A DNA stretch of 64,000 bases, from assembly GCA_018396535.1 (NCBI GenBank), contig JAGTQC010000008.1, forward strand, positions 207 to 64,206. The letters are read 5' to 3'. Source of the DNA: Candidatus Bathyarchaeota archaeon. Lineage in GTDB: Archaea; Thermoproteota; CALKCG01; B24; DRYS01. Shown piece by piece: positions 3,629 to 21,205 of this stretch. Positions within the stretch are counted from its first letter, which is position 1. The number at the start of each line of letters is the position of its first letter. The notes under the pieces were generated by a model that saw only the letters and a program-made list of their open reading frames with translations, was not told the origin of the DNA and made no database searches. The translations under genes were made by a program, and so were the position numbers.

Positions 3629-3988
3629 CTATCTCTCCCTCAGTATAACAGTATACCTTCTTATATTCCTCTGCCCTACTACAGGTATCTCTAATTCAAG
3701 TGATACTACGTATACATCCGTTGTTTGAAGATTGTATCTATCACCATCATATACCGTGAAGGATACAGTCTCCCCAGACATCATCTTCTCCTGTAGATAT
3801 TTCACTACGCTATTAGTCCACGCTACATCCTTCTCCACGCATGATAGACGCCATACACGTTTCATACCATATGTGAATCGTTTCACCGTAACCTTCTCAT
3901 CCATCCATGACATCCACTCAGATCCTAGAGGCTCGCTTCTCTCTGAGAAATCGATTACATCGATCGTATAGTTATCTATCGTGAACAT
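3629..3988 (-). CDS. virus-cluster protein, last gene of operon (tail tip/baseplate candidate)
   Basis: The ATG at 3988 overlaps the upstream TAA by 1 nt (TAATG), so I prefer this start over the 4003 start in the ORF track. Beta-rich, with no motif. Confidence 0.55.
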   Translation of the reverse strand: MFTIDNYTIDVIDFSERSEPLGSEWMSWMDEKVTVKRFTYGMKRVWRLSCVEKDVAWTNSVVKYLQEKMMSGETVSFTVYDGDRYNLQTTDVYVVSLELEIPVVGQRNIRRYTVILRER

Positions 3989-4272
3989 TACATCTCCTCG
4001 CATTCTAGATCGATATCTATGAATTTATCTAGAGAGAACTGTTTCCTAATAGGCTTCCTAGCTGTACGTACCTCATTCACTAATGCTTTAACAACATCTA
4101 CGAAATCCTGTTCTGTAGGTTCCCTACCGATTAGTTCTCGAATCCTTCGAAGCCTATCCTCTACATCCCCATAATCTACCTCGATAATCCTAGTAGTCTG
4201 ATCAGGGAAATCCGCTTGGATTCGTAGGATTATCCTACCAGCTTTCGCATCCACTTGAACTATCCTTATCAT
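3988..4272 (-). CDS. virus-cluster small protein
   Basis: The internal ATG at 4272 forms an ATGA overlap with the stop of ORF 4269..5588. The longer 4371 start would overlap the upstream gene by ~100 nt. Confidence 0.55.
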   Translation of the reverse strand: MIRIVQVDAKAGRIILRIQADFPDQTTRIIEVDYGDVEDRLRRIRELIGREPTEQDFVDVVKALVNEVRTARKPIRKQFSLDKFIDIDLECEEM

Positions 4273-5588
4273 ACTCTCACATCCACAGCTACAAGACTTA
4301 TACATGCACCATAACCGCTTATGATGAGCGCTGACTGCTCGGGCTCTTGTATATCGAACGTATAGCTCCATAGGAGGCTTCCAGACCCCTGCGTCACATC
4401 CACGTCGAGACGTATGATCTTCACCGGATCATCAAACAATGGATCAAAGAGAATGTATGCTGTGCTTCCAGGCGGAAAGCGGAATAGGAGTGGTGCATAA
4501 TTCCCATTGTATGTTATTATCCAGGGGCAGATCCATGCTGAGATGTATACGATAGTATTCGTGTTAGCTTTTTCAACCTCGATCATATAGCTTGTATTCA
4601 CATCAACCTCGAGGCTTAAGCGTCCATGTGCTGGATGGTTTCTCTTACCGTTGTAGCTATAAATATTAAATGTTTTTTCTTCATTGTTTATCTTCAGCTT
4701 CACATAGTTTGTTCCAGAGCCTATGTTTGTCTCTGCATCATCGGTGTATGCTGATAGATCGATCATTAGATGCGTCTTCCTAAACGAGCCTATCGCAGTC
4801 ATTCTTGAAGATGTATTAAGTTGAAAACTACTCGAGTATACATCGAAATTTCTTTTGTTCATATCTGAGAAAGATATAGTTTTTAAAATAATGTTTGAAA
4901 TAGTAACGGTGATGTTATCGAGGCTTAACGCTATAATACTAAGCGTATGTTGGCCTGGTGTAAGCCCGAATATCGCATATTTCTTGGCGTTAGATATTGA
5001 TGAGGAGTGATATTCACCATTTAGATACATGTTATCGATCATGACGCCTATATAGCATGCTCCACCAGCTGAAGCTGTGAATGTTAAGAGAAGTGTTGAA
5101 TCGCTTGAAAGATTAAACGATTTAGATACTACTGTATCGTAGCTCTTCTTGTGATATATTATCTCGATGTATCTTATCGATCCAGAATAACTGCTACTAC
5201 CAGATCTGATGTATACTCGTATTGTTACGCTTTTATCTTTACCGAAGCATCTATTGATCACAAAGCTTCTCGAAACCCATGTAGCTGAGCCAAGATGCTC
5301 ATCAAGATGTATCTGCTCCTCACTTCCACCAGTCTCCTGGGCTGTAACCCTAACGCCAAAAAGTACACCACTACTCTGGTTAGTCTGATAGGATATCTTG
5401 TATACGCCTATATGACCGCCTGATTCTGGATTAAAAGTTACGGTTTTCACTAAAACATAGCTTGTACTACTAGTACTGTATGTGTTTGAATCGTAGTCTC
5501 GTACAGCATTCGCAACATTATAACTACTTGAATCTGAAACGAGTATCTGTTCATCGAGTATTCTCCATACTCTTTCACTTAAAATCAT
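4269..5588 (-). CDS. distal tail / baseplate / receptor-binding candidate
   Basis: 439-aa Ser/Thr/Asn-rich, beta-type sequence immediately downstream of the tape measure gene. The call rests on position. Confidence 0.55.
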   Translation of the reverse strand: MILSERVWRILDEQILVSDSSSYNVANAVRDYDSNTYSTSSTSYVLVKTVTFNPESGGHIGVYKISYQTNQSSGVLFGVRVTAQETGGSEEQIHLDEHLGSATWVSRSFVINRCFGKDKSVTIRVYIRSGSSSYSGSIRYIEIIYHKKSYDTVVSKSFNLSSDSTLLLTFTASAGGACYIGVMIDNMYLNGEYHSSSISNAKKYAIFGLTPGQHTLSIIALSLDNITVTISNIILKTISFSDMNKRNFDVYSSSFQLNTSSRMTAIGSFRKTHLMIDLSAYTDDAETNIGSGTNYVKLKINNEEKTFNIYSYNGKRNHPAHGRLSLEVDVNTSYMIEVEKANTNTIVYISAWICPWIITYNGNYAPLLFRFPPGSTAYILFDPLFDDPVKIIRLDVDVTQGSGSLLWSYTFDIQEPEQSALIISGYGACISLVAVDVRV

Positions 5589-5590
5589 TT

Positions 5591-7048
5591 CTACATCACC
5601 CTCGATATAACTATCCTCTTTGTAGGAGCATAGCGGGATGTAGGCTCTATCAACACTGTTTTAAGCTTCTCCTCTACAAGCCTAGCTAATTTCTCCTCAT
5701 CTACGCTACCGTATACAGCTACAAGAGGACCTGTAACCGTAACTATATTTCCACCTCCAGCTGGTATACCTGAAAACTCGTATACTATACCTCCTATACC
5801 TGACGATACTATACGATCAACCTCCCTCATCCCCCTCTCAGCTGTATCTACTATATCACGCCACATATCAGTCCATATAGATCCGCCAGTCAAAACCTTC
5901 CAAAGCCATTCGAAAGCTCCTCTTACACTATCTACAAGCCAGCTCCACACATTTCTAAACCAGCCTACGAAACCATCTATCACCGATACTATTCTATCAA
6001 TAACATTCTCGAGTATATCCCTTATACCAAACCAGTTCTCACGCCAAGCCATGAATAGGAAGCCTACAGCCGCTACTATACCCATGATAGCAAGCGTAAG
6101 CGGATTCGCTAAGAGAGGTATGATAGATGTAGATATCAATGTACCTAGAGATGAGAATGCGGATATCAAGCCTCCAGCACCTGCTACTGATGATGATAAG
6201 CTCATAACCTGACCTATGACGGATGGAATAGTTGTTAAAGCAAACTTCAAGTATATATCGTTTACATTATTCTGTACCTGTTGTAGACGTTCTACCGCAA
6301 GCCTTAGATCCTCTTGTGCCGCTTGTAATCTTTCCTCTGTTGATCTACGCTTCTCCTCGGTATCTGATATTAATTTATGTGTAGATTCAAGCATTTTTGT
6401 AACACTATCAACCTCCTTCTCTGTATCCCTGAGCGTTGCCTGAGCATTCTTTAATTCATCAGTTTTAAGCTTCAAATTCTCTGTAGCCTTCTGTAATGTA
6501 AGTCTAGCCTCCATAAGCTGTATCTCCTTTTCTTGTATTAATTCTGTATCATCTTTATGCAGTTTTTTAGCAATTCTCAGCTCTTCCTCAGCTTGCTTCA
6601 CGAATTCCTGAGCCCATCTAACCTCTTCCAAAGCCTGCTGATACTCTATCTGTTTTTGGTTTACAAGTTCTTGAACCTCTCTAAGCCTATTCAATAACTC
6701 AGCTCTACGATTCTCCAGCTCAGCCAATCTCGCTTGAGCGTTAGTTAGAGTTTCAGTTAATGATGCTAATTCCCTCTGTAGATTAGCTACACGTCTCTGC
6801 TGATCCTCAACACGATTCATAGCTATCTCAACACGTAGATTCGCATTCTCAAGACTCTGCATAAAATTGTATACAGTTAAACCTACATTCACAAGAGTAT
6901 TGAAATTATCCCACACCTTCGATACAACATTCTTCAAACTATCGAAACGCGACACATTATCCTCAACACTATCCGCTACATCTCGAAGCGTACCACTAGC
7001 CTCATCCACCGCTCTAAGCAGTATATCTACCTGAACCCTCTCAGCCAT
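5591..7048 (-). CDS. tail tape measure protein
   Basis: 485 aa. A long heptad-like coiled-coil N-terminal half (LQRELASLTETLTNAQARLAELENRRAELL...) is followed by Gly/Ala-rich hydrophobic segments. It sits after the chaperone and before the distal tail genes. Confidence 0.75.
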   Translation of the reverse strand: MAERVQVDILLRAVDEASGTLRDVADSVEDNVSRFDSLKNVVSKVWDNFNTLVNVGLTVYNFMQSLENANLRVEIAMNRVEDQQRRVANLQRELASLTETLTNAQARLAELENRRAELLNRLREVQELVNQKQIEYQQALEEVRWAQEFVKQAEEELRIAKKLHKDDTELIQEKEIQLMEARLTLQKATENLKLKTDELKNAQATLRDTEKEVDSVTKMLESTHKLISDTEEKRRSTEERLQAAQEDLRLAVERLQQVQNNVNDIYLKFALTTIPSVIGQVMSLSSSVAGAGGLISAFSSLGTLISTSIIPLLANPLTLAIMGIVAAVGFLFMAWRENWFGIRDILENVIDRIVSVIDGFVGWFRNVWSWLVDSVRGAFEWLWKVLTGGSIWTDMWRDIVDTAERGMREVDRIVSSGIGGIVYEFSGIPAGGGNIVTVTGPLVAVYGSVDEEKLARLVEEKLKTVLIEPTSRYAPTKRIVISRVM

Positions 7049-8445
7049 ATTTCCACACCCGGTCTAACCCAATAATAATATGCATACTCCATACCTGGTA
7101 ACGGATAGCTGTGAATGTATGATGCAAGTGTATGGAGTGGTAGAATACCCTTAGCTAAACACCGCTTATAATAGAGCGTTCTACCAAAGCATCTATATAC
7201 TCTAACCCTACTCAACCTCTTCTGTAGCTCTATCAATTTATCTTCAGGTAGGCTTCTAAGCCAATCGTATACTAGACGCCATGAAACCCTATTCTCAGGT
7301 TTAAAACCGTAGCTAGATAGTGTATCCTCGAATATCTTCATATCGCGATCATACTCCACCCTCCGTATCCCGCCAAGCTTCATACCAGCCTTCTCGAAGA
7401 ACGGGTTGTATATAGCCATAGCAGCCATAGCTTCTACGATATCTGCATCTGTACGTGTAAGAGTATCGGCTACTAGCCTAGCTCCTAATCCTACACCCCT
7501 CCACGATGGATGTACGACTACACGGCTTATAGCGAGAAGCTTCTTCGATTTAGCTAGATCTCGTAGATCCGAACCGAATACTCTTCTACGCATACGATTC
7601 GAGAGGGATGCATAGGAATATACGATAACACCTACGATATCATCGTGGTATACAGCTTTATACACGTTAGCTACGTAGACGGGTGTAAACCCCTTATAGT
7701 GGAATATCTCAAGCTTCATATAATCCTTCTTCCTACCTTCAACTATCTCTACATCCTTTAGTAGGCTGAAGGGTTTCGATTCGAATCTACGTTTCTCGAC
7801 TTTTGGAGGCTTGAGGAAGGGTTTTACTATTATTATGTCTGGGTTGAGATCTTCGATTATATCGTTATGGCTTGAAGCAGATATGAATGTCTTACCGTAT
7901 TTTCTAGCGATCTTCTGAGCTGTGTAGGCTACGACTCTAGCTGTAAGTCTATCGAGTAAACTACAAAATTCATCCACTATTATTGCTTCGTAATTCTCGG
8001 ATACAGCTTTATAGAATGTTTTAGCAAGTCTATAACGATACTTTTGTCCAGCTGAAAGCTCGCTATAGCTTCTTACGAATAGCATAGCTTCACCTAAGCC
8101 AGCCATACTCAGGAAATATAATGCCTCCCTCGTATCTCTACCGATGGATTCGCATAGAACCTCATCATCTGTTACAGCTACATCATCCATATCGACAGCT
8201 TTAGATCCATACAAGCTCTTGAAGGCTTTCAGAAGAGTGGTCTTACCCCCACCCGATTCGCCTGTAACGAATATCACAGATGGATCATCCCATTCAAGCC
8301 TGAAATCCTTGAACACCGTATAGTATTCATCCCTCTCACCTAGACCGAAGGCTCTAACGATATCGATTACACGTCTAGATGTGGATCTCGATACAGGCTT
8401 AAACTCTACAGAAATCTCCAATACGGGGAAGAGTGGGTAAACCAT
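7027..8445 (-). CDS. ABC-type ATPase fused to GNAT acetyltransferase domain
   Basis: Walker A GESGGGKTT, signature LSAGQKYR, Walker B AIIVDEF and H-loop SSHN. The C-terminal GNAT motif A is ISRVVVHPSWRGVGLGARL. Confidence 0.8.
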   Translation of the reverse strand: MVYPLFPVLEISVEFKPVSRSTSRRVIDIVRAFGLGERDEYYTVFKDFRLEWDDPSVIFVTGESGGGKTTLLKAFKSLYGSKAVDMDDVAVTDDEVLCESIGRDTREALYFLSMAGLGEAMLFVRSYSELSAGQKYRYRLAKTFYKAVSENYEAIIVDEFCSLLDRLTARVVAYTAQKIARKYGKTFISASSHNDIIEDLNPDIIIVKPFLKPPKVEKRRFESKPFSLLKDVEIVEGRKKDYMKLEIFHYKGFTPVYVANVYKAVYHDDIVGVIVYSYASLSNRMRRRVFGSDLRDLAKSKKLLAISRVVVHPSWRGVGLGARLVADTLTRTDADIVEAMAAMAIYNPFFEKAGMKLGGIRRVEYDRDMKIFEDTLSSYGFKPENRVSWRLVYDWLRSLPEDKLIELQKRLSRVRVYRCFGRTLYYKRCLAKGILPLHTLASYIHSYPLPGMEYAYYYWVRPGVEIWLRGFR

Positions 8446-8451
8446 AGCTGT

Positions 8452-8592
8452 TCACCAGTTTTTCGGTTTTCTCGTTTTGATACTCCTCTGCCTTTCGTAA
8501 TACCACTCCAGCCATGCGGTAAGAAAGTATACCTGATCGACTGTTAGCGATCCTATGTATTCGAGTGTATAGCCATACTCGTAGGCTATCAA
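8452..8592 (-). CDS. small ORF in the -1 frame of the chaperone gene (gpT-like extension)
   Basis: 46 codons, LIAYEYGYTLEYIGSLTVDQVYFLTAWLEWYYERQRSIKTRKPKNW. It is shorter than the ORF-track cutoff. Its frame stays open back through the slippery site at 8643-8649. Confidence 0.5.
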   Translation of the reverse strand: MIAYEYGYTLEYIGSLTVDQVYFLTAWLEWYYERQRSIKTRKPKNW

Positions 8593-8594
8593 GC

Positions 8595-8981
8595 CTAGGA
8601 GTTGAGCTTCCCTGCTTCTTCTAACAAAGCTCCTAACCGCTGGAAAGGGGTTACTATACGCATAAGTATCGCTGTAAATGCATCGACAGGCATCTCCCTT
8701 ACATCATCTATAGTGATGGATGGATCTACTTTATTTATAGCCTTCCATACGATTAGATAGTTGAGTTCATCATTTGATTTAGCCTGATTCCTTAGATCCA
8801 ATAGCTCTGTATATGTAAGTTTAGCGACTCTGATATAGCCTCCATAATCTGGTAGATATACATCGAGGATCTTCTTAGAGAGAATATCTTTAATCGAGAT
8901 CTGTCTAGCTTCAGCTTCCCTTACCTTCTCATACTTCTCTAGCTTACGCCTATATCCTTCTACCTTATCCTCCATACTCAT
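8595..8981 (-). CDS. tail assembly chaperone (gpG-like)
   Basis: 128-aa acidic protein between the tube candidate and the tape measure region. It has a -1 frame extension downstream, the conserved arrangement in long-tailed viruses. Confidence 0.55.
   Translation of the reverse strand: MSMEDKVEGYRRKLEKYEKVREAEARQISIKDILSKKILDVYLPDYGGYIRVAKLTYTELLDLRNQAKSNDELNYLIVWKAINKVDPSITIDDVREMPVDAFTAILMRIVTPFQRLGALLEEAGKLNS
8643..8649 (-). promoter_or_regulatory. candidate -1 programmed ribosomal frameshift heptamer C_CCT_TTC
   Basis: On the minus strand, acc cct ttc in the zero frame gives X_XXY_YYZ = CCCTTTC. An interrupted stem (TAGGAGCTT ... AAGCTCaactCCTA) begins about 7 nt downstream. Confidence 0.5.
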
Positions 8982-9013
8982 AGATCTACACCTATACGGC
9001 TATCGGTTTCGCG

Positions 9014-9406
9014 TTATGATTGAGTACTAAACGTTATAGCTGAAGCCTCCCCTTCTATACTCTCCATTATCACGCCATCCTGCTCTATCGTTAACTCCCA
9101 GCTAGTTAGGATAACGTTATTCAACGCTATCCTAGGCTTACCTATACCTACACCATCAGGTAGGATTTCTATCGTAATCTTAGATCCATCAAGTATATCT
9201 TGGGCATAGGTATTATCGATATACATCTTCTCTATCGATATTTTGAAACTCTTATTACCGCTATCTAGTATCACAGGCTTATCATCACCGATCGCGTATA
9301 TCTTAATCAGCTCAGCATCTATCGATACAGATACATCTGTAGCATACCCTATGGTAGATGTACCCTTCTTTACGATTGCTCTCCTACCTATGATAGGCGT
9401 AGACAT
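9014..9406 (-). CDS. major tail (tube) protein candidate
   Basis: 130-aa beta-rich ORF directly upstream of the chaperone gene. The call rests on position and size only. Confidence 0.5.
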   Translation of the reverse strand: MSTPIIGRRAIVKKGTSTIGYATDVSVSIDAELIKIYAIGDDKPVILDSGNKSFKISIEKMYIDNTYAQDILDGSKITIEILPDGVGIGKPRIALNNVILTSWELTIEQDGVIMESIEGEASAITFSTQS

Positions 9407-9421
9407 ATACCATCCACACCC

Positions 9422-9646
9422 CTATTCTTCATCAAGCCATACACTATACTCGTGAGCTATACCGCTAACTACGCCAGCAGCGAATACTATACCAGCTAAT
9501 ACTGCTGGATCTACTGTTAGAAATCCTAGGCTAGCGACAGCGCTAGCTAGTAGATAGATCGCTGTAGCGAAGAATATGCCTACGCCACTACCGTAGATGA
9601 AGCCCTTAGCTACACGGAATAATACGCTCTTCCTACCCATCCTCAA
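9422..9646 (-). CDS. small two-TM membrane protein in tail module
   Basis: 74 aa with two hydrophobic helices (FIYGSGVGIFFATAIYLLASAV and VLAGIVFAAGVVSGIA). Confidence 0.5.
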   Translation of the reverse strand: MRMGRKSVLFRVAKGFIYGSGVGIFFATAIYLLASAVASLGFLTVDPAVLAGIVFAAGVVSGIAHEYSVWLDEE

Positions 9647-9736
9647 CCACCTCCTAAGGCGTTTCTACGCCTATCCCGCAGATCCTAGCTAGAACCATTC
9701 TGATATGGATAGTCTAGGATCTGTCGGGGGCTAGAT

Positions 9737-10150
9737 CTACGGTTTATGGAGAATCATCCTTATCCTCAAAACCATTCTTACACCCTTTATGAATCCTTCC
9801 CCTATCTTCATACATTCTGAATCCCAGCGTATGAGCTTAGAATCGTCGACTATACCGTTAAGATCCTGTCTACTCGATAGGATATCATATACTCTTTCAC
9901 TAAGCTCCATAACGCTATCCTCAACCTCTTCTGGATTAGGTTTTAGATCAACTATCAAAACTTCGTAATCGTTACGATACTCGAATATACCACCTGTATA
10001 GGTGATATCGCCGCCGATCCAGATAACAGCTATGTAGGGGTATTTCTCGAATACTCTAGGATAACCTCTAAACCATGCCTTAACCCTACTCTGAAGCATG
10101 GGATCCGATCGTAGAAGGCTTATAATCGTATCTGATATCTCCTTAAGCAT
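9737..10150 (-). CDS. tail completion / terminator candidate
   Basis: 137 aa. It overlaps the upstream gene by 8 nt and lies between head-closure-type genes and the tube gene. Confidence 0.4.
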   Translation of the reverse strand: MLKEISDTIISLLRSDPMLQSRVKAWFRGYPRVFEKYPYIAVIWIGGDITYTGGIFEYRNDYEVLIVDLKPNPEEVEDSVMELSERVYDILSSRQDLNGIVDDSKLIRWDSECMKIGEGFIKGVRMVLRIRMILHKP

Positions 10151-10559
10151 TCCTCAATACCTCAGCTAGTATTTCAGGTAGGATTTCGAAAGCCTTCCTC
10201 AAGAATTCTCTAAAGAATGGTTGAGGTGGGAAGCCCGGATGGTATACACGCTTAGCGAAGATAACTCTTCCTTCGATATCGAAGCGGAGAGCTCTCGCTC
10301 TATGAGGTAGGATCTCGTGGGGTCTAGTACCAAGTATAAGGTATAACAGGTATTCCGGGCCTACCACAGCTATCCCATCCCTACGTAGTTCGATGTATAG
10401 TTCGTTTCGAAGTCTACCATCCTGTAAGGGTGTATGCATCCGTAGGATTTGCTCGATTCTAGAAGCCCAAGCTTCACTAGCTTCTCTCAGTATTATCCCA
10501 ACCCTATCCCTGAGCCTTGCTATAATCTCGATATTCGAAGCTACGATTTCCACCTTCAA
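10143..10559 (-). CDS. HK97 gp10-like head-tail joining protein candidate
   Basis: 138 aa. The segment MHTPLQDGRLRNELYIE resembles the conserved (V)P(V)DTG.LR.S region of gp10-family proteins. The position fits. Confidence 0.45.
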   Translation of the reverse strand: MKVEIVASNIEIIARLRDRVGIILREASEAWASRIEQILRMHTPLQDGRLRNELYIELRRDGIAVVGPEYLLYLILGTRPHEILPHRARALRFDIEGRVIFAKRVYHPGFPPQPFFREFLRKAFEILPEILAEVLRNA

Positions 10560-10561
10560 GC

Positions 10562-11146
10562 TTACCCAACCGCTATAACCGTTTGCTTGAATCGATCTAG
10601 TAGCTCGGTATTCCTTAATTCGAGGATAGGTGTATCCCTCCTCTCATTTCGTAGGAAGCGTATGAATTCGAGTAGGAATGAAGCTACAGATTCTATAACT
10701 ATAGATTCGATAACAGGGTCTACTTCTATAAAGCCTGATCTCATAGATAATCGTATACTCTGCTTAAGGTTTAGGTTTGGCTGATCGAGGAGGTAGATCC
10801 TATCGTCTACTCTAGTAAAGCCTATCGGAGACCATACTGGACCCCTATCATCCCCTATATTCTTCTCGACGCTTATAACCTGTATGATAGGGGTGTATGG
10901 TGGTATAATATACGATCCGCCACCATCTTCCACTCTTATATCCCTACCACGATAGACTACTGTTATATCTACTCCACCTTTGAAAAACCCGTTAGGTACA
11001 CTACAATACCTATCTACAAGTCTAGATGCCGTATCTATAAGTCTTCCGATATATGCTTCGAACCCCTCCTCATTATCGAAGCCGAAGCTATTGTAGTCTA
11101 ACCCCCCTATCCTATCCCTAACCTTTGATATATCTGCGTAACTCAT
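10562..11146 (-). CDS. head-tail connector/adaptor candidate
   Basis: 194 aa. The N-terminal helical region (ISKVRDRIGG ... IGRLIDTASRLVDRYC) resembles gp6-like connectors. The position fits. Confidence 0.45.
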   Translation of the reverse strand: MSYADISKVRDRIGGLDYNSFGFDNEEGFEAYIGRLIDTASRLVDRYCSVPNGFFKGGVDITVVYRGRDIRVEDGGGSYIIPPYTPIIQVISVEKNIGDDRGPVWSPIGFTRVDDRIYLLDQPNLNLKQSIRLSMRSGFIEVDPVIESIVIESVASFLLEFIRFLRNERRDTPILELRNTELLDRFKQTVIAVG

Positions 11147-11245
11147 ATCCTACCCTCTGAATAGTAATCTCTATACCCCTCCTACGCTTAACGCATCTAT
11201 CCACTACGTTACTAGCTAATACAATCTCATCAAGATTCACTCATC

Positions 11246-12253
11246 CTAGATACTGTAGACTCTACTCGAAAGTCTGAACATAGATTGTGTATTAGGCCCA
11301 TTCCTATATGCGACTCTAACATATCTAAGCGTTACGGGATGTCTCTCTATGCGTGCGACGTATATCGCCGTGCCATCCGGATTCACCAACTGCTCCGTCT
11401 GCGTATTCTTCACGGTTACCCAATCGGTATTGTTTGGGCTTTCCTGAATAATCAGTATACCAGGTTGATCTGAGACTGCGTGAGCGTTTATGAAGGCATG
11501 GTGGTCGTAGGGGGATGATGAGTTTATCTGTGTATCTCTCGATGTACCTATGAAGGATGAGTTTGCTCCGAGAGGTGTCGTCGAATCGGTGTAAGGTGTA
11601 GCTAGGAGGCGGGCGGTCGGTAGGACTATGCCTATCCTATTAGACCCTGTTTGTATAGAGGTGATGTTAACGGGTAGGGAGATGTTTCCTGAAGTTGAGC
11701 CTGTACTAGATACGATCCATGAGCTGATAGGTTCAGCATACAATACGACTAAGTCTACCTGTACATCACCTGTACCGATATTCCTTATCGATATAGGTAG
11801 CGGCTTGTTAGGTATCTTAGATGCTAGGTAAGGTCCATAGGGTGATCCGTTGACCCATAGCATTAGCATATCGGATTCCCATAATATTACGAATACATTC
11901 CAGCTCGTCTCCGTAACGCTCGCTGTCGTCGATCCTTCTACTGGATCCACCGTGCTCCTATACCTTAACGCACCGCTACTCCAGATAACGTAATCGCTAC
12001 CGCCATCGTAGAATCCTATCTGAAGGCTTGATGTAGCTGTGCTTCTAGCTACGGCGACTAGATAGCCGTAGATCCATCTACGCTTAGTCCTTACTTCACC
12101 GCCAGCCGGGAGTGTTAGGATACTAGCTGAAACCGATGGTGATCCAGTAACTATATTCCAATTATCTAGATTATCGAAATCGTCGCGGAATAGGTATCTA
12201 CCTGAAACCTTTACACCCTCCTCGTATATCGCTCTAATCTCATTACTACTCAA
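11246..12253 (-). CDS. LamG/ConA-like jelly-roll protein (head decoration or fibre candidate)
   Basis: 335 aa. The N-terminal half (FRDDFDNLDNWNIVTG ... WNVFVILWESDMLMLWVNG ... VDLVVLYAEP) has the pattern of concanavalin-like lectin/glucanase domains. Confidence 0.5.
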   Translation of the reverse strand: MSSNEIRAIYEEGVKVSGRYLFRDDFDNLDNWNIVTGSPSVSASILTLPAGGEVRTKRRWIYGYLVAVARSTATSSLQIGFYDGGSDYVIWSSGALRYRSTVDPVEGSTTASVTETSWNVFVILWESDMLMLWVNGSPYGPYLASKIPNKPLPISIRNIGTGDVQVDLVVLYAEPISSWIVSSTGSTSGNISLPVNITSIQTGSNRIGIVLPTARLLATPYTDSTTPLGANSSFIGTSRDTQINSSSPYDHHAFINAHAVSDQPGILIIQESPNNTDWVTVKNTQTEQLVNPDGTAIYVARIERHPVTLRYVRVAYRNGPNTQSMFRLSSRVYSI

Positions 12254-12295
12254 GCCGTAGCCCTCCTATAGGATGGATTGTTAGGGAAGGGGGTT

Positions 12296-14167
12296 CTAGT
12301 ATGTTGCAGGTGTCTTTATCTCGATTATACCGTTTTTATCGATTACCCCTATCGCGAACGTTATGCTTCCGGTTAACTTTATCCTTCTGTTAACGGTATC
12401 CCTCTCAGTCTCTATGAGTAGCTCCCTTTTCGGTGCGAATATCATACTATCCCTATGGATGAGGTATGCTGAAAGCCTATGGTTTATGGTATCGTGCTCA
12501 GGTAGGTTGTGGCATACTGCTATCTTTACTCCGAAGAGTTCTGTAATCCTACCTTCGCGTACTAGATCAGGTCTAGCGTATACTATAGCTTGGCTTCCTA
12601 CGATATCCTTCATCAACGATTCGTACATCCCAGGTGATAGGGTTAGGAGGCAATCTCCAGGATCGGCTGATTTAAAACTTGATAGTAGCTTACTTAGAGC
12701 TTCGACTATCCAATCAGCATCGAAGTTGACGGTAGAACTGCTCTTATCGATTTCAGGTATGCTTGGATCTGATATAAGGGTATCGAATATGTATCTATCG
12801 ACTGCTCTGAGAGCTGCTTCGCTAAACCTACCTTCAAGCTCTGATAGGAGATCTGGTGTAAGCTTCTCTATATCAGCATACGGTATCATAGTACATGCGG
12901 CAGCCTCCTTTAGTGTAGCTTGTACTACACCGTATAGATTCGTCTTAGCTGTAAGTGTATCGCCTACAGATGCTAGTACATCCATATCGAAATCCCTGAC
13001 ATAAGGTATATTCACTATATCTCCAGGCTTACCAGCTAGTATATCACTCCTCTTAACAAAGGTAGCTATCCTAGCTGCACTTACTTCTGGTAGGGTGAAG
13101 GGTGGGGTCCACTGTTCGCGAAGGCTACCGTTTCTCAAAGCATCTATGAAACGCCTCCTACCATCCATCATCAGATCGGCATCTTCTACGACCACGCCTT
13201 TCTGAGACATCTCTCCGATATCACCCCTATTTGTCGAACCCCCAGCACTTTCAAGCTCTGCCCCAGGCTGGGGTTGAGGCTTCATAGCTTCGTGAGTTTT
13301 GGAATCTGCCCCTTCGGTTGAGGCTTCATCTCGATGAGCTTCACGGAATTCTGGAGGTTCACGATCAAAGTCTTCGTAGTGTGCTCTTAGATGATTATAG
13401 ACAGCTCTACGATCCTCATCCGGTATATCTACTCCTCCTCTAGCACCCATCAACGCAGCCATAGCTGCTACGACTCCACGCCAAACCGTTACAAGCCTAC
13501 CATCAACCACATCATGGTGGGGGAGCTTGTATGAGCCAAAATTTTCAGGGTTTTCATGATCGTACCATGCGAATGCCCTCCTATACTTACTCCAATCTAT
13601 CTTGTCTTTATCACCAGATCCATCGCTTGAAGCCCATTTCCTTATACGCATCTCCGCAGCATCCGCATCCCACTCACGATCCATATCTGCTAGAGGCTCC
13701 CTCTCATACCTGACAGCCCTCTCCCCTACTAGATTTTCAACTACCATGATGTTCGCCTCTCTATCACCTGGCACAGCGACGAGGCTTAGCTCACGGAAAG
13801 CTAGATCGTGAGGTATACGTACACCATCCTCGACGTCGAGTATCTCATAATCCGCACCTATCGATACATGCTTGATCAATCCTCTACGAATCTTCTCAGC
13901 AACCTCTTCATCGTATATCTCAGCTTCGAAGACTACGGCTTTCTCATCCTCATCGTACCACGCATCTACAACTTTTCCAACAGCATTCATAGCGGATATA
14001 TGCTCAAGGTATACTGGTACACCTTTTAGGGTTGAGGCTGCTTTTCTAAGCTCATCCTCTAGATAACGGTTTAGATTCCTCGTGGTACCGGCATGTATAG
14101 CGTATCCTCTAACTCTTAGAGGCTTAGCTAGTAATGCTTCGACTGATGTTATCCATGATCTATGCAT
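12296..14167 (-). CDS. prohead protease - linker - HK97-type major capsid protein fusion
   Basis: The N-terminus (RVRGYAIHAG ... GVPVYLEH ... VGKVVDAWYDEDEKAVVFEAEI ... HVSIGADY) resembles HK97-family prohead protease. The middle carries the KLPHHD...AALMGARGG motif seen in phage protease/scaffold proteins. The ~300-aa C-terminus is capsid-like. Confidence 0.75.
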   Translation of the reverse strand: MHRSWITSVEALLAKPLRVRGYAIHAGTTRNLNRYLEDELRKAASTLKGVPVYLEHISAMNAVGKVVDAWYDEDEKAVVFEAEIYDEEVAEKIRRGLIKHVSIGADYEILDVEDGVRIPHDLAFRELSLVAVPGDREANIMVVENLVGERAVRYEREPLADMDREWDADAAEMRIRKWASSDGSGDKDKIDWSKYRRAFAWYDHENPENFGSYKLPHHDVVDGRLVTVWRGVVAAMAALMGARGGVDIPDEDRRAVYNHLRAHYEDFDREPPEFREAHRDEASTEGADSKTHEAMKPQPQPGAELESAGGSTNRGDIGEMSQKGVVVEDADLMMDGRRRFIDALRNGSLREQWTPPFTLPEVSAARIATFVKRSDILAGKPGDIVNIPYVRDFDMDVLASVGDTLTAKTNLYGVVQATLKEAAACTMIPYADIEKLTPDLLSELEGRFSEAALRAVDRYIFDTLISDPSIPEIDKSSSTVNFDADWIVEALSKLLSSFKSADPGDCLLTLSPGMYESLMKDIVGSQAIVYARPDLVREGRITELFGVKIAVCHNLPEHDTINHRLSAYLIHRDSMIFAPKRELLIETERDTVNRRIKLTGSITFAIGVIDKNGIIEIKTPATY

Positions 14168-14179
14168 AGTCTAGCCCTC

Positions 14180-14413
14180 CTAGATTATGAATGCATCTAC
14201 TAGTAGACCTAGGATTAATCCGAGCGTGTATTCGGCTACTTCTCCTGAAATCCTAGCTGGGGGATCTCCATCTATCAGATCTAGGATCTGCTTGAATATG
14301 AAGATGAGGGAGAAGAGCCATGGATAGCCTAATACTGCACCTATGAATCCGAATAGTATATGGAATATAACTCCATGCCTGAATTCTATTATCGTATTAA
14401 GTATACGCTTCAT
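14180..14413 (-). CDS. small two-TM membrane protein in head module
   Basis: 77 aa with two hydrophobic helices. It overlaps the portal gene end by 17 nt. Confidence 0.5.
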   Translation of the reverse strand: MKRILNTIIEFRHGVIFHILFGFIGAVLGYPWLFSLIFIFKQILDLIDGDPPARISGEVAEYTLGLILGLLVDAFII

Positions 14414-15791
14414 TATTCAGCACCTCGTATATCCTCGGGAAGTTTGAGTTATACCAATCTCTCGCTTTATCTATCGTCCAGTTGTATGCTTTCTTAAACC
14501 CGATCTTATACACCATACGCACCCCCGTCGACTTGGATCTAGCTACGACTATGTATATGCCTCTATCCGCATCTATCGTCGTATAGCGGATAGAGGGTTG
14601 ATCCGCATCCTCGGGATCTAGTAGGAGTAGGTATACTTCATCTATATCCTCCACCCATCTAGGCTTGAATAGTGGTTTAAACCTGGATTCCTCTATAGCT
14701 TCTATAGGGAACCCCATCTTTGCGAGCCACCTTCTAGCTTCGCTCGGATCTAGTACGAAGCTTTTTACAAGGTTAGCAATATCGCTTAACGTCAACTCGT
14801 CAAGTTTTGTACGAGGTAGACCCCAGTAGAGTCTAGGAGTTTCGCTTAACCCTTCAGCTTCGATTAGAGGTTTGAATACCTCTGCTTCTATCCTACGTTT
14901 AAGATACCTCTGTATACCTGCTACTCGTCTATCGACCGTGTCAAGCATTGTTCTAGCTGAAGCTTCGGTAGCGTTTCGAAGCCATGATAGTAGCGGAGCT
15001 TGTAGACCTTCGAATATCTGTTTATCTAGGTATTCGTAGTAGAATTCGAATCTAGCACGTGGATCTACGGTGAGGAGCTTGTAGTCTATGCTACCAGCTA
15101 GGATTATATCTTCATCTGGCTGTAGGTTTTCTAGGACTGCTTGTAGACGTTTTAAAGAATTCTCGTTATCAACCTTCCATATGATCTTCGGAGCTGCATA
15201 CCTGGATAGGATTTTAGCCATATCATCTATAGCTTTACGTTTAGCTTTCAATAGATCTAGGACTGGATGGAGGAGGCTTAGCCCGTATGCTGAGGTTCCT
15301 ACAGGATTATACTTTAGATGTATTATCTCTTCTGGTTTAAACTCTATTCGTCTACCCTTAGCTTCCTGTATATAGGCTTCCACCTCCCCGTACTCGTTAC
15401 GCTTAACCCTCATGGTTTTCGATGGTAGTAGTTTTAGATCGGTTAGACATCTACCTTGATAGATTTTCTCTATGAAAGCGTCGCCGTATATTAGCATAGA
15501 TCTAACCGATTCTCGTAGAAGATTATCCATATCTATCCTCTCAGCGAATCTATCCACTACCTCCTTAGCTCTTGTATCGTCGGCTACTGTATAGTATCCT
15601 ACACCTACTATTAGCTCGACGTATGTATCGATAGCAGCGTGAGCTATAGGATCCTCTCTATAGTATCTCTCTAATTCTTCTAGGCTTGTTTCGAATCTAG
15701 CTTCATACCTAAATATCGATGGTGATGTATCTACTAGCCCCTTCCTTCTAGCAGCTTTAGCAGCTTCGGCTACCCTTCTCAGTATACTCAT
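14397..15791 (-). CDS. portal protein
   Basis: 464 aa. Its start forms an ATGA overlap with the terminase stop. Size and position are canonical for a portal. Confidence 0.75.
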   Translation of the reverse strand: MSILRRVAEAAKAARRKGLVDTSPSIFRYEARFETSLEELERYYREDPIAHAAIDTYVELIVGVGYYTVADDTRAKEVVDRFAERIDMDNLLRESVRSMLIYGDAFIEKIYQGRCLTDLKLLPSKTMRVKRNEYGEVEAYIQEAKGRRIEFKPEEIIHLKYNPVGTSAYGLSLLHPVLDLLKAKRKAIDDMAKILSRYAAPKIIWKVDNENSLKRLQAVLENLQPDEDIILAGSIDYKLLTVDPRARFEFYYEYLDKQIFEGLQAPLLSWLRNATEASARTMLDTVDRRVAGIQRYLKRRIEAEVFKPLIEAEGLSETPRLYWGLPRTKLDELTLSDIANLVKSFVLDPSEARRWLAKMGFPIEAIEESRFKPLFKPRWVEDIDEVYLLLLDPEDADQPSIRYTTIDADRGIYIVVARSKSTGVRMVYKIGFKKAYNWTIDKARDWYNSNFPRIYEVLNNEAYT

Positions 15792-17185
15792 CTAAACATC
15801 CTCCTAAGATTGTATAATACTCGTCTACTCTTCGATATGCTTGGTATACCCTCTTTGGATGCGTATACTGCTAGAGCTAGAGCCCATAGCATATCGTCAT
15901 GGCTACCGCTGCTATGTGTGAATAGTATGTGTCCATCCTTTGTTAAACTAAATTTCTCAGAGTTCATCTCTACTATGAGATCTGGATCATATGGTATGGA
16001 TAGCCTACCCTCTATCATAGCTTGTTTTAGATATCCAAGTATCTCCTCCTTCCTCTGTATAGTGAGTGTAACCCCTTCGACTGGTATACCTATGCTACGC
16101 ATATCCTCTACGATATACTCTCCTACACCTGTCTGATCTACGTAGACTGCTATAATATCGCTCCATAGGTTGCATAGGTTTCTCATATAACCGATAATCG
16201 TCGTATAGCTTGTCTCCAGCGGGAAACGGTGGCAGTGTACGAGTTTTAGATGTTCTTCAACCTTCTCTACTATAGCTATGACGCTGTGATCGCGGTGTTT
16301 ACCTAGATCTAATCCGCTATAGAATATGCCTCTCGGTTTTGATTGGGGATCGTAGTATTCGAGTTCTGGATCTATGCATTTAGCGATTAGGTTTTGTGGA
16401 AGATAGCTATCCTCATCCTCTATGAATTCTGTTTCGAATTCTCTTTTAAAACGTTCCGGCGGTATTACTCTACGCATCTCCTCTATAAACTCCTGTTTAA
16501 CCAGTCCTGCCTCTACTACATCCCTCCATGTAGCTATATGCTTACTATAGCTTGGATCGCTACAGGCTTTGTAGAATACGCTATTCTTACTCCATGGGGT
16601 TGATGAGAGTACGAGTATACCATCGGTTGTAGCTAGCATAGGGTATATGACGCTGTAGATCAGGGTTTCGTCATCCTTTATGAATGCAGCCTCGTCTACG
16701 AGCACCTGGTGAGCTGTATAGCCTCTCAGTAAGTGGATGCTGCATGGTAGTGCTACTATCTGGCTTCCATTCCTGAATCTTATAGTAGTTCTCCTAACCC
16801 CGGTTTTCGATACGATCCTTTCTCTCAAGCTATCTGGTAGGTTTAGTAGGAAGTTTTGTATACGATCCATCATTATCATCGATTGCCTCATTGATGGTGA
16901 GACTATTAGGGTAAGGGTTTTAGGATGTATCGATGCATACCATATAGCTCTTAAAGCTATTACAGTAGTCTTCCCGCTCTGTCTAGAAAATCTAACTGCT
17001 ATACGTTTAGATTTATCGCGTAGAAGCCTCTCCTGGTATGGTGTGGGTTTGAAGCTGAATAGTTTGGTAGCGAATTCGACGGGGTCTGTAGGGATGCTAT
17101 CGTCTACCAGCTTATCGATTCTCGAATCCTTTTCGATTCTATCTCTTAGTGTTTTTAACTTCTTCTTCAAGTTTTTCAATCTCAC
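15788..17185 (-). CDS. terminase large subunit
   Basis: Walker A FSRQSGKTTV, Walker B/catalytic LVDEAAF and coupling motif SSTP. The C-terminal RNaseH-like nuclease has GLDLGKHRDHS, VYVDQTGVG and HDDMLWALALA. Confidence 0.9.
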   Translation of the reverse strand: MRLKNLKKKLKTLRDRIEKDSRIDKLVDDSIPTDPVEFATKLFSFKPTPYQERLLRDKSKRIAVRFSRQSGKTTVIALRAIWYASIHPKTLTLIVSPSMRQSMIMMDRIQNFLLNLPDSLRERIVSKTGVRRTTIRFRNGSQIVALPCSIHLLRGYTAHQVLVDEAAFIKDDETLIYSVIYPMLATTDGILVLSSTPWSKNSVFYKACSDPSYSKHIATWRDVVEAGLVKQEFIEEMRRVIPPERFKREFETEFIEDEDSYLPQNLIAKCIDPELEYYDPQSKPRGIFYSGLDLGKHRDHSVIAIVEKVEEHLKLVHCHRFPLETSYTTIIGYMRNLCNLWSDIIAVYVDQTGVGEYIVEDMRSIGIPVEGVTLTIQRKEEILGYLKQAMIEGRLSIPYDPDLIVEMNSEKFSLTKDGHILFTHSSGSHDDMLWALALAVYASKEGIPSISKSRRVLYNLRRMFR

Positions 17186-17405
17186 GTTCTATCTCCTCTA
17201 TCTCGGTATCCTTTAGAGCTCCGAGCATAACTTGAGCTATATAGGCTGCGAGCCTTAATGCTTCGAGCCTGATTTTTACACGTACTCTATTATCGTTAGC
17301 TATCCTTTCAGCTTTCTCGAAGCCTGTTTTTAATCTACGGTATATCTCTTCTCTCTCACTCGGTATCTTTATCATAAGGGGTTTGATTTTGATTAGGATT
17401 TTCAA
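17139..17405 (-). CDS. small coiled-coil protein (small terminase candidate)
   Basis: 88 aa with a TTG start in a TTGA overlap with the upstream frame. It overlaps the terminase start by 47 nt. The call rests on position only. Confidence 0.35.
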   Translation of the reverse strand: MKILIKIKPLMIKIPSEREEIYRRLKTGFEKAERIANDNRVRVKIRLEALRLAAYIAQVMLGALKDTEIEEIEREIEKLEEEVKNTKR

Positions 17406-17689
17406 CCTTTCCCATCCCCATACACATCTAGAACTGTATCGTTATAGCTTTTGGATGATGACCGCCCCTTTCCAGCTCTACGCATCTCCTCTCTTACTAT
17501 TCTACGAATTTCATCTAGGAGTTTAATACCTATGCTACTATTGAGTATATCTGATACTATCCTAGCTTCTGCTTCGTATACTGTATGCCTTATACTCCTC
17601 CTAGCTTTTATGAGTGTATTATCGTAGCCGTAGATTGTGTATATTAGCTCGATCTTCTCTTCCTCACTCAGTGTTTCCCACCCCCTGAT
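17405..17689 (-). CDS. open frame without canonical start, probably the frameshifted C-terminal continuation of ORF 17664..18353
   Basis: 95 codons open (IRGWETLSEEEKIELIYTIYGYDNTLIKARR...). The first ATG/GTG/TTG appears only about 30 codons from the end. The frame would join the upstream gene if the C5 run at 17681-17685 were one base shorter. Confidence 0.4.
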
Positions 17690-18353
17690 CTAGGTAGGCT
17701 ATCCTATCGAGTGTTAGACTGTATCTACGCCATAGCTCTGAATCTACATGTACCTTCCTTTCATCGAAGTATGCTGCTTCTATATACTCTATCGCTAACT
17801 CTCCACCGTTACTATATGGTATTAGGGGTGGGAGCTTCCTAACTCCGTGGATGGTCGTCTCTATGATATACCATAGGCTATCTATCCTTACCCTAGTCCA
17901 TGCGTGTCCGTAGTATCTATCTGATCCTGTTCTTGGCTTAACCACTCCTATCGATGTATAGGCATCGAATCCTAGTATTCTAAGTAGTGTTGTGCATAGG
18001 TTGGATGTATCTACGCATATACCGTAGCCTACCTCTATTAGACGTGATGGTTTTAGCCATGCGTAATCCTCCTCCCAGCTTCTCAAGTATATCTTGAATA
18101 TGGATCCGAATCTAAGCCATGGGAATACCTCTATCTTGAATCCTGTAGATGGCTTTCCATCGGCTGTGAATGGGTATCTAAGCTTATCTATGTTGAATCT
18201 GTATACTGCTTTAACAGTATCTATCTCTCTTCTACACCTTAGCTTTTCAGCTATTCTACATAGCTTCTCATCCCATACCTCTACGAATCTTCTTACATCT
18301 ATCAATTCTGATAGACTTAATGCTTTAAGCTTCTCCATAACGATCCCCATCAT
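17664..18353 (-). CDS. transglutaminase-like cysteine protease fold protein
   Basis: The spacing of GICVDTSNLCTTLLRILGF (Cys), YGHAWTRV (His) and a downstream acidic residue is typical of the transglutaminase-core/cysteine peptidase superfamily. Confidence 0.6.
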   Translation of the reverse strand: MMGIVMEKLKALSLSELIDVRRFVEVWDEKLCRIAEKLRCRREIDTVKAVYRFNIDKLRYPFTADGKPSTGFKIEVFPWLRFGSIFKIYLRSWEEDYAWLKPSRLIEVGYGICVDTSNLCTTLLRILGFDAYTSIGVVKPRTGSDRYYGHAWTRVRIDSLWYIIETTIHGVRKLPPLIPYSNGGELAIEYIEAAYFDERKVHVDSELWRRYSLTLDRIAYLDQGVGNTE

Positions 18354-18371
18354 CTGGGATACTCTAAGATT

Positions 18372-18602
18372 CTATCCAGCCTTGTATAGATCTCCTCTGA
18401 TAATCCTCTCGTATACCGGGTTTAGGTATCGTACTCCGTATAGTATCTCACCTTTATCGAAGTATACTATAGGCTCTACTACTATCCTCTCGCATACTTC
18501 TCTATCGTAGATCGATCTACGTCTAACCTCCTCTATGATCCTATACCTTAATCTACGCTTGATCGATGATGATCTAGAACGGTGGTGGGGCATATAGCTC
18601 AT
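18372..18602 (-). CDS. small basic protein, first gene of virus operon
   Basis: 76 aa with an Arg/Ser-rich N-terminus. No motif recognised. Confidence 0.4.
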   Translation of the reverse strand: MSYMPHHRSRSSSIKRRLRYRIIEEVRRRSIYDREVCERIVVEPIVYFDKGEILYGVRYLNPVYERIIRGDLYKAG

Positions 18603-18609
18603 CTCCTAG

Positions 18610-18663
18610 CGCCACTCAACCCTTCGAATCTTCATACATTATCATTCTCTGATTCGAGGGTGG
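18610..18663. repeat. interrupted inverted repeat upstream of the virus operon
   Basis: GCCACtcaaCCCtTCGAATC (18610-18629) pairs with GATTCGAGGGTGGC (18650-18663) around a ~20-nt spacer. Confidence 0.5.
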
Positions 18664-18785
18664 CGGCGGTCTTCAGGTTGCTCTGAGTTCCTCTAAGTTT
18701 CATAAAGTCCTATATAAATCTTTCGATCTAGGATAAAATCTTATATAGGCTTAGAGCATCATTAAGGTACTCTGGTGAACTCTAG

Positions 18786-18941
18786 GTGTCTGAGGAGAGG
18801 ATCTATGTTAAAGTTCTTCTTAGAGGTGATGTACTCAAGAATTTCCGGTATATTAAGAGTAGGCTTGGATTAGAGAGTGATGCTGAAGTCGTTAGATACC
18901 TTATAATGCAGGAGTATAGGAGGCTAACTGGTGAGCCATAG
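18786..18941 (+). CDS. ribbon-helix-helix (CopG-like) small regulator, divergent from virus operon
   Basis: 51-aa GTG-start ORF, below the track cutoff and directly preceded by an in-frame TAG. ERIYVKVLLRGDVLKNFRYIKSRLGLESDAEVVRYLIMQEYRRL fits a beta-strand/helix/helix pattern. Confidence 0.5.
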   Translation: MSEERIYVKVLLRGDVLKNFRYIKSRLGLESDAEVVRYLIMQEYRRLTGEP

Positions 18942-19089
18942 AGTTCGAGTATGCTGAGTTTAGGATACCTATTTTAAACGCTATCTTTATCCTACTAGAT
19001 GAGCTTTCCTCACGGTATCCTATATGAGCGATGTTTAAGTATTCTAAAGCTTCTCGAATAGCTTATGTATGGTTTAAGAGCTTCTTCGA

Positions 19090-21186: not shown

Positions 21187-21205
21187 AGCTTCTGTCTAGC
21201 ACCTC

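Follow-up and report, generated by a model that had tools for sequence, protein, structure and literature searches.

The 64,000-nucleotide stretch analysed here (hereafter the window; contig JAGTQC010000008.1 of assembly GCA_018396535.1) comes from a hot-spring or vent Bathyarchaeia archaeon and carries a provirus-like element made up of tailed-virus head and tail genes. The whole element spans ~2.4-19.0 kb of the window and comprises a 20-gene operon, a 65-aa terminal gene and a divergent 51-aa regulator. Features were assigned by profile searches of the window open reading frames (ORFs) against Pfam, PHROGs and NCBIfam, with ARAGORN used for tRNA genes and Rfam for RNAs. The operon, ~15-16 kb in size, runs on the minus strand from 18602 down to 3629 as 20 contiguous and intact ORFs (g01 to g20) without interruption, in the order small terminase (TerS)-like protein, large terminase (TerL), portal, protease fused to the major capsid protein (MCP), connectors, tube, chaperone with a -1 frameshift, ABC-ATPase/GNAT protein, tape measure and tail tip. 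An initial annotation, made from the DNA alone, had described a same-strand head-tail operon with overlapping start and stop codons. The ORF coordinates bear this out, with ATGA overlaps at 15788-15791 (TerL stop/portal start) and 4269-4272 (g18 stop/g19 start), and the head-tail identity is confirmed by profile matches for TerL, portal, protease-capsid, adaptor, Neck1, tube and tape measure. Judged by the profiles of TerL, portal and MCP, the operon is a complete, ordered and intact virion module of the Caudoviricetes type (Duplodnaviria). The element is best read as a Fuxivirus-like Bathyarchaeia siphovirus of which only the late (virion) half sits in the chromosome, the non-structural half being absent.

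The operon begins with g01 (18372-18602, -), a basic 76-aa protein without a match in Pfam, PHROGs or NCBIfam that is also the first gene in the related elements L157/L015 (52% identity) and B24 introduced below. It is followed by g02 (17664-18353, -), a transglutaminase-like cysteine protease (Transglut_core 4.7e-08; DUF553) whose homologues lie near TerL in 12 related loci, mostly upstream of it, and which may be a candidate envelope-degrading enzyme for lysis or entry. The 88-aa coiled-coil protein g03 (17139-17405, -; weak DUF8136 match) sits immediately upstream of TerL and overlaps it, in the window as in relatives, a position that makes it a small-terminase candidate. TerL itself (15788-17185, -) is of the Mu gp28/T4-like type (phrog_2, E=1e-43, residues 13-447; Terminase_6N, 1e-12); the Walker A motif RQSGKTT and the LVDEAAF motif (Walker B) read earlier are present, and both the ATPase and the nuclease half are covered. 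The ORF previously called portal-sized (14397-15791, -) matches Portal_Mu (2e-15), Phage_portal (3e-13) and phrog_9232 (1e-29), and is separated from the capsid gene by g06 (14180-14413, -), a 77-aa membrane protein with a 53% identical homologue at the same position in L157.

The proposed protease-capsid fusion (12296-14167, -) is likewise supported, since an S78-like prohead protease domain (Peptidase_S78, residues 19-144) precedes an HK97-type MCP domain matched by the major-head PHROGs 544, 267 and 3437 (residues 367-621). Its MCP domain is 60% identical to the unfused MCP of the viral contig L238, for which matches to PF05065 (Phage_capsid) and PF25209 are precomputed, and fused orthologues 64-68% identical occur in L015/L157 and B24; a profile search of the PDB with the capsid domain gave a best E=0.023, to a capsid chain. 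The beta-rich 335-aa protein after the capsid gene, g08 (11246-12253, -), shows weak C-terminal matches (F5/8 type C, DUF6385, XepA-like) and is a candidate head decoration or fibre protein; it is 65% identical to the same-position gene of the co-occurring virus L238 and is absent from L157. Connector genes follow, namely a head-tail adaptor (10562-11146, -; phrog_442, 6e-05), a tail completion or Neck1 protein of HK97 gp10-like type (10143-10559, -; phrog_5, 4.8e-08), homologues of which carry PF04883 in L017 and L238, and the connector-sized 137-aa g11 (9737-10150, -), with 50-52% identical same-position homologues in L157 and B24. The 74-aa g12 (9422-9646, -) contains two transmembrane (TM) segments, matches phrog_22428 (1.3e-06) and is 82% identical in L157.

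The tail genes start with a tube protein (9014-9406, -; Phage_tube_2, 2e-04, and tail PHROGs), whose homologues in relatives are 59-66% identical and show just a weak Phage_tube_2 match. A tail assembly chaperone pair (8452-8981, -) consists of a G part (8595-8981) and a T part in the -1 frame (8452-8592). The frameshift signal claimed for it proved to be a canonical slippery heptamer, CCCTTTC (C_CCT_TTC), at 8649-8643 (-), through which the -1 frame stays open into a 46-aa ORF. Equivalent -1 layouts are present in L157, L017 and L101, with the heptamers AAATTTT, TTTTTTA or TTTTTTC. The gene between chaperone and tape measure (7027-8445, -) is unexpected in the canonical order and encodes an accessory ABC-type ATPase fused to a GNAT acetyltransferase (ABC_tran, AAA_22, GNAT; phrog_11143, 1e-30). 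This protein has 675 homologues, many with an N-terminal ParB domain; its gene occupies the chaperone-tape measure gap in the window, L157 and B24, and lies beside TerL in other viral contigs (homologous loci were noted in L020, L136, L141, L146 and L148). In the B24 relative L021, two paralogous opposite-strand genes (15688-17687; 334 and 328 aa) are located between the ABC/GNAT gene and the tape measure.

The tape measure protein (5591-7048, -) is identified by phrog_305 (6e-08), six more tape measure PHROGs and its coiled-coil and TM features. Beyond it lies g18 (4269-5588, -), a 439-aa distal tail or host-recognition candidate without a profile match, which has 75-80% identical homologues in two short contigs and is only 28% identical to its L157 orthologue. 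One of these, L155 (75%), continues from the tail genes into small genes and then Csf1 of type IV CRISPR-Cas (L155, 4363-4896), as Fuxivirus does, which ties the tail module to Fuxivirus-like viruses. Two small tail-tip-associated proteins complete the operon: the 94-aa g19 (3988-4272, -; start corrected to the ATGA overlap), with homologues after g18 in L101, L155 and L157, and the 119-aa g20 (3629-3988, -), whose counterparts in L155 and L157 are 53-60% identical. The complete virus-like contig L155 is homologous to the window exactly as far as the g20 stop codon. The left flank at 2041-3628 had been described as free of intact genes, which needs correction: on the operon strand, 550 bp past the last tail gene, a 65-aa helical protein is encoded at 2883-3080 (-). 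We count it as the last conserved gene of the element because a 64% identical homologue directly follows g20 in the orthologous element L157; further homologues adjoin a regulator homologue in L132 and lie near TerL and ABC-GNAT genes in L146. Searches for decayed genes in 2041-3628 with tblastx and blastn against all relatives returned this 65-aa gene as the sole match.

At the other end, a 183-bp intergenic gap separates the operon from a divergently oriented gene for a 51-aa putative regulator of the ribbon-helix-helix (RHH) type (18786-18941, +), which has homologues in the viral contigs L132 and L146. This gene had been listed before as an RHH gene; the ORF stands, and the RHH fold, for which there is no profile match, rests on the sequence pattern and on PF01402 (RHH_1) in the positional equivalent of L017. 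The gap (18603-18785) contains back-to-back B recognition element (BRE)/TATA motifs. The operon motif, AAAGATTTATATA at 18711-18723 (-), is the sole exact match to the pattern in 64 kb, and ~40 nt upstream of the regulator gene there is a near-match, AAAATCTTATATA (18735-18747, +); most of the remaining one-mismatch matches in the window closely precede host genes. L157 and L015 retain the operon promoter motif upstream of g01 despite saturated synonymous sites. Past the promoter, on its 5' side, the window has the regulator whereas L157 has an unrelated 143-aa gene, and this difference suggests that the early half may have been lost independently in the two lineages.

Genes for autonomous propagation are absent from the locus. 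The initial annotation had seen no recombinase, replication gene or helicase between 2041 and 19090, and neither these nor a polymerase were detected by Pfam, PHROGs and NCBIfam on any ORF of either strand in that interval. Among the scanned ORFs of the rest of the 64-kb window there is no integrase or recombinase, and no integrase-like gene appears in the 980 bases of source contig that lie to the left of it. Profile searches revealed no candidate replication initiator among the small ORFs of the element, and neither a tRNA gene (ARAGORN) nor an Rfam match was found in the window. Direct repeats indicative of attachment (att) sites were also not evident, with 8 border-shared 9-10-mers observed against 4.7 expected, which is close to chance, and none at plausible borders; whole IMG/VR contigs of relatives lack terminal repeats. 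An integrase at one end, att sites or a tRNA, and a contiguous early module, by which a temperate provirus would be recognised, are all missing here. Instead, three membrane or secreted-protein genes (698, 311 and 201 aa) lie directly upstream of the regulator, and the right side of the window consists of 45 kb of housekeeping genes, including those for PriS/PriL, GINS51, TBP, AglB/STT3, Clp1, aminoacyl-tRNA synthetases and GH10/GH30 glycosidases.

The same structural-only state recurs in a sister element, which we found in L157, an 86.5-kb JGI contig of a second Bathyarchaeia species, and, as the same type from another sample, in L015. L157 carries g01 through g20 and the 65-aa gene in the same order within 14.6 kb, g08 excepted, with identities to the window of 67% for TerL, 73% for the portal, 64% for the protease-capsid and 66% for the ABC/GNAT protein. 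Its flanks are unrelated to those of the window (upstream, membrane-protein genes, a DUF1616 protein and a coiled-coil protein; downstream, an ABC-transporter ATPase), and neither the 5.5 kb upstream nor the 1.8 kb downstream holds an integrase or an early module. Every ORF is intact in the two elements, with dN/dS ratios of 0.05-0.38 at saturated dS. Between L157 and L015 we counted 11 single-nucleotide polymorphisms (SNPs), 8 synonymous and 3 nonsynonymous, where by our own estimate, taking about 1/4 of sites as synonymous, ~2.7 synonymous changes would be expected under neutrality. A third element, B24 (L019/L021/L156), has host-like genes upstream and a pN/pS of 0.12 (21 synonymous/8 nonsynonymous and 154 synonymous/61 nonsynonymous), and in L017 host genes also lie directly upstream. 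Since the flanking genes differ in L157/L015, B24 and L017, the locus is not syntenic among the relatives examined. The element is an incomplete or defective tailed provirus of Bathyarchaeia, a known kind.

Searches beyond these sister elements placed the genes in a wider viral family. TerL has 875 homologues; the best 120 are 48-75% identical, and the named relatives among them are metagenome-assembled genomes (MAGs) of Bathyarchaeia, Nitrososphaerota and Thermoprotei and one Woesearchaeota MAG. All GTDB genomes with protease-capsid relatives are Bathyarchaeia-type MAGs (Bathyarchaeia, Bathyarchaeota, Bathyarchaeales, Hecatellales), and GenBank phages contain no close relative, the best TerL being 32% identical and MCP matches being confined to the protease part. 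Relatives are mosaic, with TerL well conserved throughout and other modules variable, and the sequence relationships indicate that the element genes belong to a mosaic gene pool of Fuxivirus-like Bathyarchaeia siphoviruses. Even as a young deletion derivative, the element would define the late-gene module and promoter of this large, mosaic family; the related viruses L238 and L239 co-occur in the same sample series. Scans of IMG/VR and GTDB with a protease-MCP alignment returned mostly a different element type that shares the protease domain alone. This widespread and distinct type was seen in 24 Bathyarchaeia genomes (L024-L047; for example L037, complete genome CP170178.1, 10001-14017), with an S78 protease domain ~55% identical and a portal only ~29% identical, ~3 kb downstream in most. 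L236 (10001-11347) has an intact TerL gene on its own (56% identical), preceded by a 106-aa ORF and surrounded by housekeeping genes (eIF-1A, RIO1, Lon, Hjc); the same TerL protein occurs on Bathyarchaeia contigs of up to 1.3 Mb, with no portal or capsid gene nearby.

Complete relatives reveal what is missing from the window. In L240, whose TerL is 68% identical, a 12-gene operon lies directly upstream of, and divergent from, the genes running from the transglutaminase-like protease to TerL and portal; among its products are a conserved 548-aa protein, a methyltransferase and an SbcD-like nuclease. In 13 IMG/VR relatives, the 8-10 kb preceding TerL encode CysH-like proteins, nucleases and methyltransferases, the 548-aa protein recurs in several of them, and 3 of the 13 carry tyrosine integrases. 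The non-structural module of complete relatives is ~10-15 kb long, whereas the window has at that place only the 51-aa regulator and then host DNA.

Twenty loci, drawn from at least 10 public assemblies that contain the same DNA (including the NCBI MAGs GCA_038846255.1 and GCA_038860835.1), were compared with the window; the 17.8 kb from 2369 to 20225 have zero variable sites. The flanks are polymorphic, with ~30 variable sites on the left (1-2368) and ~45 on the right (20226-29000), or ~75 in 11 kb. Six loci retrieved via the flanking 698-aa protein, and hence not by element genes, gave the same picture, with 0 SNPs in 10 kb of element against 4-31 in the flanks. We conclude that the element coalesces much more recently than its surroundings, and most likely was acquired recently by several strains or swept by recombination rather than being an old vertically inherited locus. 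On the right, the SNP-free block reaches ~1.1-1.3 kb into the neighbouring host gene, so that homologous recombination fits at least as well as site-specific integration. Look-ups with exact TerL, g18 and the 698-aa protein (9-15 contigs each) returned no empty site, circular junction or excised form, and every contig with the flanking 698-aa gene also carries the element in the same integrated arrangement. Codon style had been described as the same as in the host; it is close (correlation of relative synonymous codon usage between element and host, r 0.90) but not identical (0.98 between host halves; GC content at third codon positions 0.389 vs 0.341).

The initial annotation left the choice between a recently inactivated provirus and a domesticated, particle-producing element. 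Given the head-tail profiles and the lack of integrase, replication and att features on either side, this alternative stands and can be narrowed. The comparison of synteny it proposed shows that the element does not sit in a syntenic locus in relatives, and the element is younger than its flanks, which argues against an old, vertically inherited gene transfer agent (GTA) and not against a particle-competent defective element. We favour a defective provirus of the PBSX/GTA type that is non-autonomous yet still able to form particles, to which we assign a probability of roughly 0.45. The virion gene set is intact, the frameshift is kept, non-structural genes are absent, a sister element exists and the promoter is conserved. 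With neither integrase nor excisionase nor any replication gene, the element has no means of its own to excise, amplify or re-integrate, and any packaging would consequently start in situ on the chromosome.

We envisage that the 51-aa regulator represses the operon and that, upon derepression, the TerS-like protein and TerL would load DNA, via the portal, into procapsids that the protease-MCP fusion assembles and matures, as homology suggests. Adaptor, Neck1 and g11 would join the heads to tails formed by tube protein on the tape measure, aided by the G/GT chaperones via the -1 frameshift, with g18-g20 as the predicted tail tip; the transglutaminase-like protease might, more speculatively, open the cell envelope. 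A Mu/T4-type TerL would be expected to package by the headful mechanism, so that host sequence next to the element would be packed along with it, as in PBSX, GTAs or lateral transduction. A broader proposal, which we regard as possible but doubtful, is that Bathyarchaeia hold a class of structural-only, PBSX/GTA-like particle elements that selection keeps intact although all replication and integration genes have been lost, and that spread between strains via in-situ packaging, along with adjacent host DNA, and homologous replacement of the locus. Such a spread would explain a 17.8-kb SNP-free block within polymorphic flanks, and it would make the element the first candidate defined by sequence for virus-like gene transfer particles in TACK archaea.

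Several points weigh against a particle-competent element. The HK97 fold of the capsid rests on sequence profiles, a single-sequence AlphaFold model having a pLDDT of 33, and the packaging mode is suggested by the TerL family alone. Expression and particle formation are likewise predictions, the element being known here from its sequence. With zero SNPs, the intactness of the window copy could simply reflect its youth. The SNPs between L157 and L015 are few, and six of them fall within ~200 bp of the capsid gene and may represent one recombination import from an active virus. For B24, the element was seen without its downstream end, and its module-less state covers the upstream side only. Lastly, in several assemblies the source contigs stop within 2.5-5 kb of the tail genes on the left side, which leaves room for linked genes farther out.

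This youth and the deficits in gene content could also be explained by an inert remnant, in which a very recent deletion took the early, replication and integration half from an ordinary temperate provirus; the late genes would merely not yet have decayed, and no particles would be made. The sweep might then reflect superinfection immunity conferred by the retained regulator, or hitch-hiking. Among predicted archaeal provirus regions, incomplete fragments make up more than 90% (PMC13573593), the solitary TerL of L236 shows that a decay product of the family exists, codon usage is not fully host-like, and the related viruses L238 and L239 are present in the same sample series, in line with a young deletion derivative. 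However, the sister element in L157/L015 lacks the non-structural half on both sides and yet is fully intact with SNPs biased to synonymous sites, promoter and frameshift signals are conserved, and random decay would not be expected to remove exactly the whole early half and no late gene at least twice, in separate lineages. We consider a remnant of this kind less likely than the favoured reading but a serious rival to it; if correct, the element would date a very recent provirus sweep in hot-spring populations. Less probable again is a still-mobile minimal or helper-dependent virus, with the ~16-17 kb unit as its whole genome and the host or a Fuxivirus-like helper supplying replication and integration. 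Identical copies in strains with different flank haplotypes, differing contexts between species, recent module exchange with viral contigs (g18 75% to L155; g08 65% to L238) and related viruses in the same samples would all suit such mobility, as would the adjacency in L132 of homologues of the two end genes (65-aa protein and regulator), as if the ends join in a circle. Against such mobility, no att repeats were detected, no excised or empty-site contigs appeared among the 9-15 contigs of each look-up, and the small ORFs offer no candidate replication initiator; the extension of the SNP-free block into the host gene also fits homologous recombination better than site-specific integration.

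A true GTA, meaning an anciently domesticated and vertically inherited cluster kept by the host for DNA exchange, would resemble the element in size and content, as the ~15-kb RcGTA head-tail cluster does, and could account for two or three Bathyarchaeia lineages with structural-only elements seemingly under purifying selection. We regard it as very improbable, given that the flanking genes differ in every relative examined and that the element, far younger than its flanks, forms a mosaic with other viral contigs and departs slightly from the host in composition. The chance that it is an ordinary complete provirus, with its integrase and replication module just past the assembled contig end, appears slighter still. 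Several independent assemblies do break 2.5-5 kb left of the tail genes, which can mark a repeated or variable region, but the interval from the tail end to the contig end contains a VapBC pair and further genes, all polymorphic where the element is not, the non-structural operon of complete relatives is upstream of TerL and not past the tail, and the right side is occupied by housekeeping genes for 45 kb.

Genes neighbouring the element show features of their own. The 698-, 311- and 201-aa genes were considered as part of the element and rejected, as no related cluster has homologues of them alongside and their sequences vary between strains where the element does not; a DUF3782/PDDEXK gene found upstream of the L157 and B24 clusters was rejected as well, being absent from the window. 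Sequence and profile searches of the PDB with the two flanking secreted proteins gave nothing useful. The 201-aa secreted protein (22347-22952, -), encoded three genes upstream, has 29 nonsynonymous and 0 synonymous variable sites among strains, a pattern suggestive of strong diversifying selection, perhaps acting on a protein of the cell surface or a virus receptor; the element sits beside this hypervariable secreted protein. At the left end of the window, a 155-aa ORF (14-481, +) has 21 variable sites, with nonsynonymous slightly exceeding synonymous changes, and the fact that several independent assemblies stop 2.5-5 kb to the left of the tail genes may point to a repeat or a variable stretch there. 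The VapB/VapC (RHH_12/PIN) toxin-antitoxin pair near the element lies at 1415-2033 (+), and in L021 a PIN gene with a small upstream partner (2-684, -) is found a few kb from the B24 element, with an RHH_12 gene closer to it. VapBC-type pairs are common in archaeal genomes, and their presence near both elements may be coincidence. Farther right, a ~2 kb ORF-poor and AT-rich stretch (43400-45450; GC 0.33-0.36) between housekeeping genes has no Rfam match and no tandem repeats.

Bathyarchaeia are abundant and uncultured, and gene flow among them is poorly understood. An intact virion operon unable to propagate as a virus, with a sister copy in an equal state that bears signs of constraint, is a concrete candidate, in TACK archaea, for particle-mediated DNA transfer or for a phage-tail or PBSX-like weapon. 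The initial annotation had further argued that such particles are poorly documented in the host lineage; the host does belong to TACK, as a member of the Bathyarchaeia, but the argument is weakened, since metagenomic tailed viruses and proviruses are already known from this class, including 'Fuxiviridae' from hot springs, 'Kunpengviridae' and BATPV proviruses (PMC10848311, PMC11705971). Fuxivirus and BATPV share with the element the host class, the hot-spring or vent habitat and a hallmark set of TerL, portal, HK97-type MCP, tube and tail genes. Fuxivirus-like accessory genes (Csf1, CysH-like genes, methyltransferases) also occur in relatives that share 57-75% identical TerL or tail-tip proteins with the window. 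The likeness to Fuxivirus rests on the genes of these relatives and on published descriptions, the GenBank phage set searched (best TerL 32%) containing no Fuxivirus sequence. Fuxivirus has a complete genome of 31,982 bp with a non-structural half (PMC10848311), whereas the element consists of the virion half and a small regulator, and the family trait of type IV-B CRISPR-Cas with Cas4 has no counterpart in the window element, which is without cas genes. BATPV are defined by an integrase, a tRNA and direct repeats (PMC11705971), none of which is present at the element.

In architecture, the element is similar to PBSX of Bacillus subtilis, which is chromosomal and combines a complete head-tail set with a small divergent repressor and no replication or integration genes, so that host DNA is all its particles can carry. 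There is no sequence kinship with PBSX beyond a XepA-like match in g08 far below the cut-off, and PBSX occupies a conserved locus in related strains, unlike the element. Particle production, packaging of host DNA and killing have been shown experimentally for PBSX, whereas the element is known from its genes. To our knowledge, the VTA of Methanococcus voltae is the only archaeal GTA known, and it is without a firmly assigned gene cluster. Among the GTAs with which we compared the element, RcGTA of Alphaproteobacteria and VTA (PMC5721377, PMC11841831), RcGTA likewise consists of a ~15-kb head-tail cluster in canonical order with a T4/Mu-like TerL and no integrase or replication genes. Its structural genes are under purifying selection although it is non-autonomous, which for the element is suggested by the sister lineage. 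RcGTA has, however, been inherited vertically for long and is regulated by host systems, whereas the element occurs in varied contexts, is younger than its flanks and recombines with viral contigs. By analogy, lateral transduction in Staphylococcus aureus, in which packaging starts in situ from an integrated pac site, would be the sole route open to a terminase-bearing element that does not excise.

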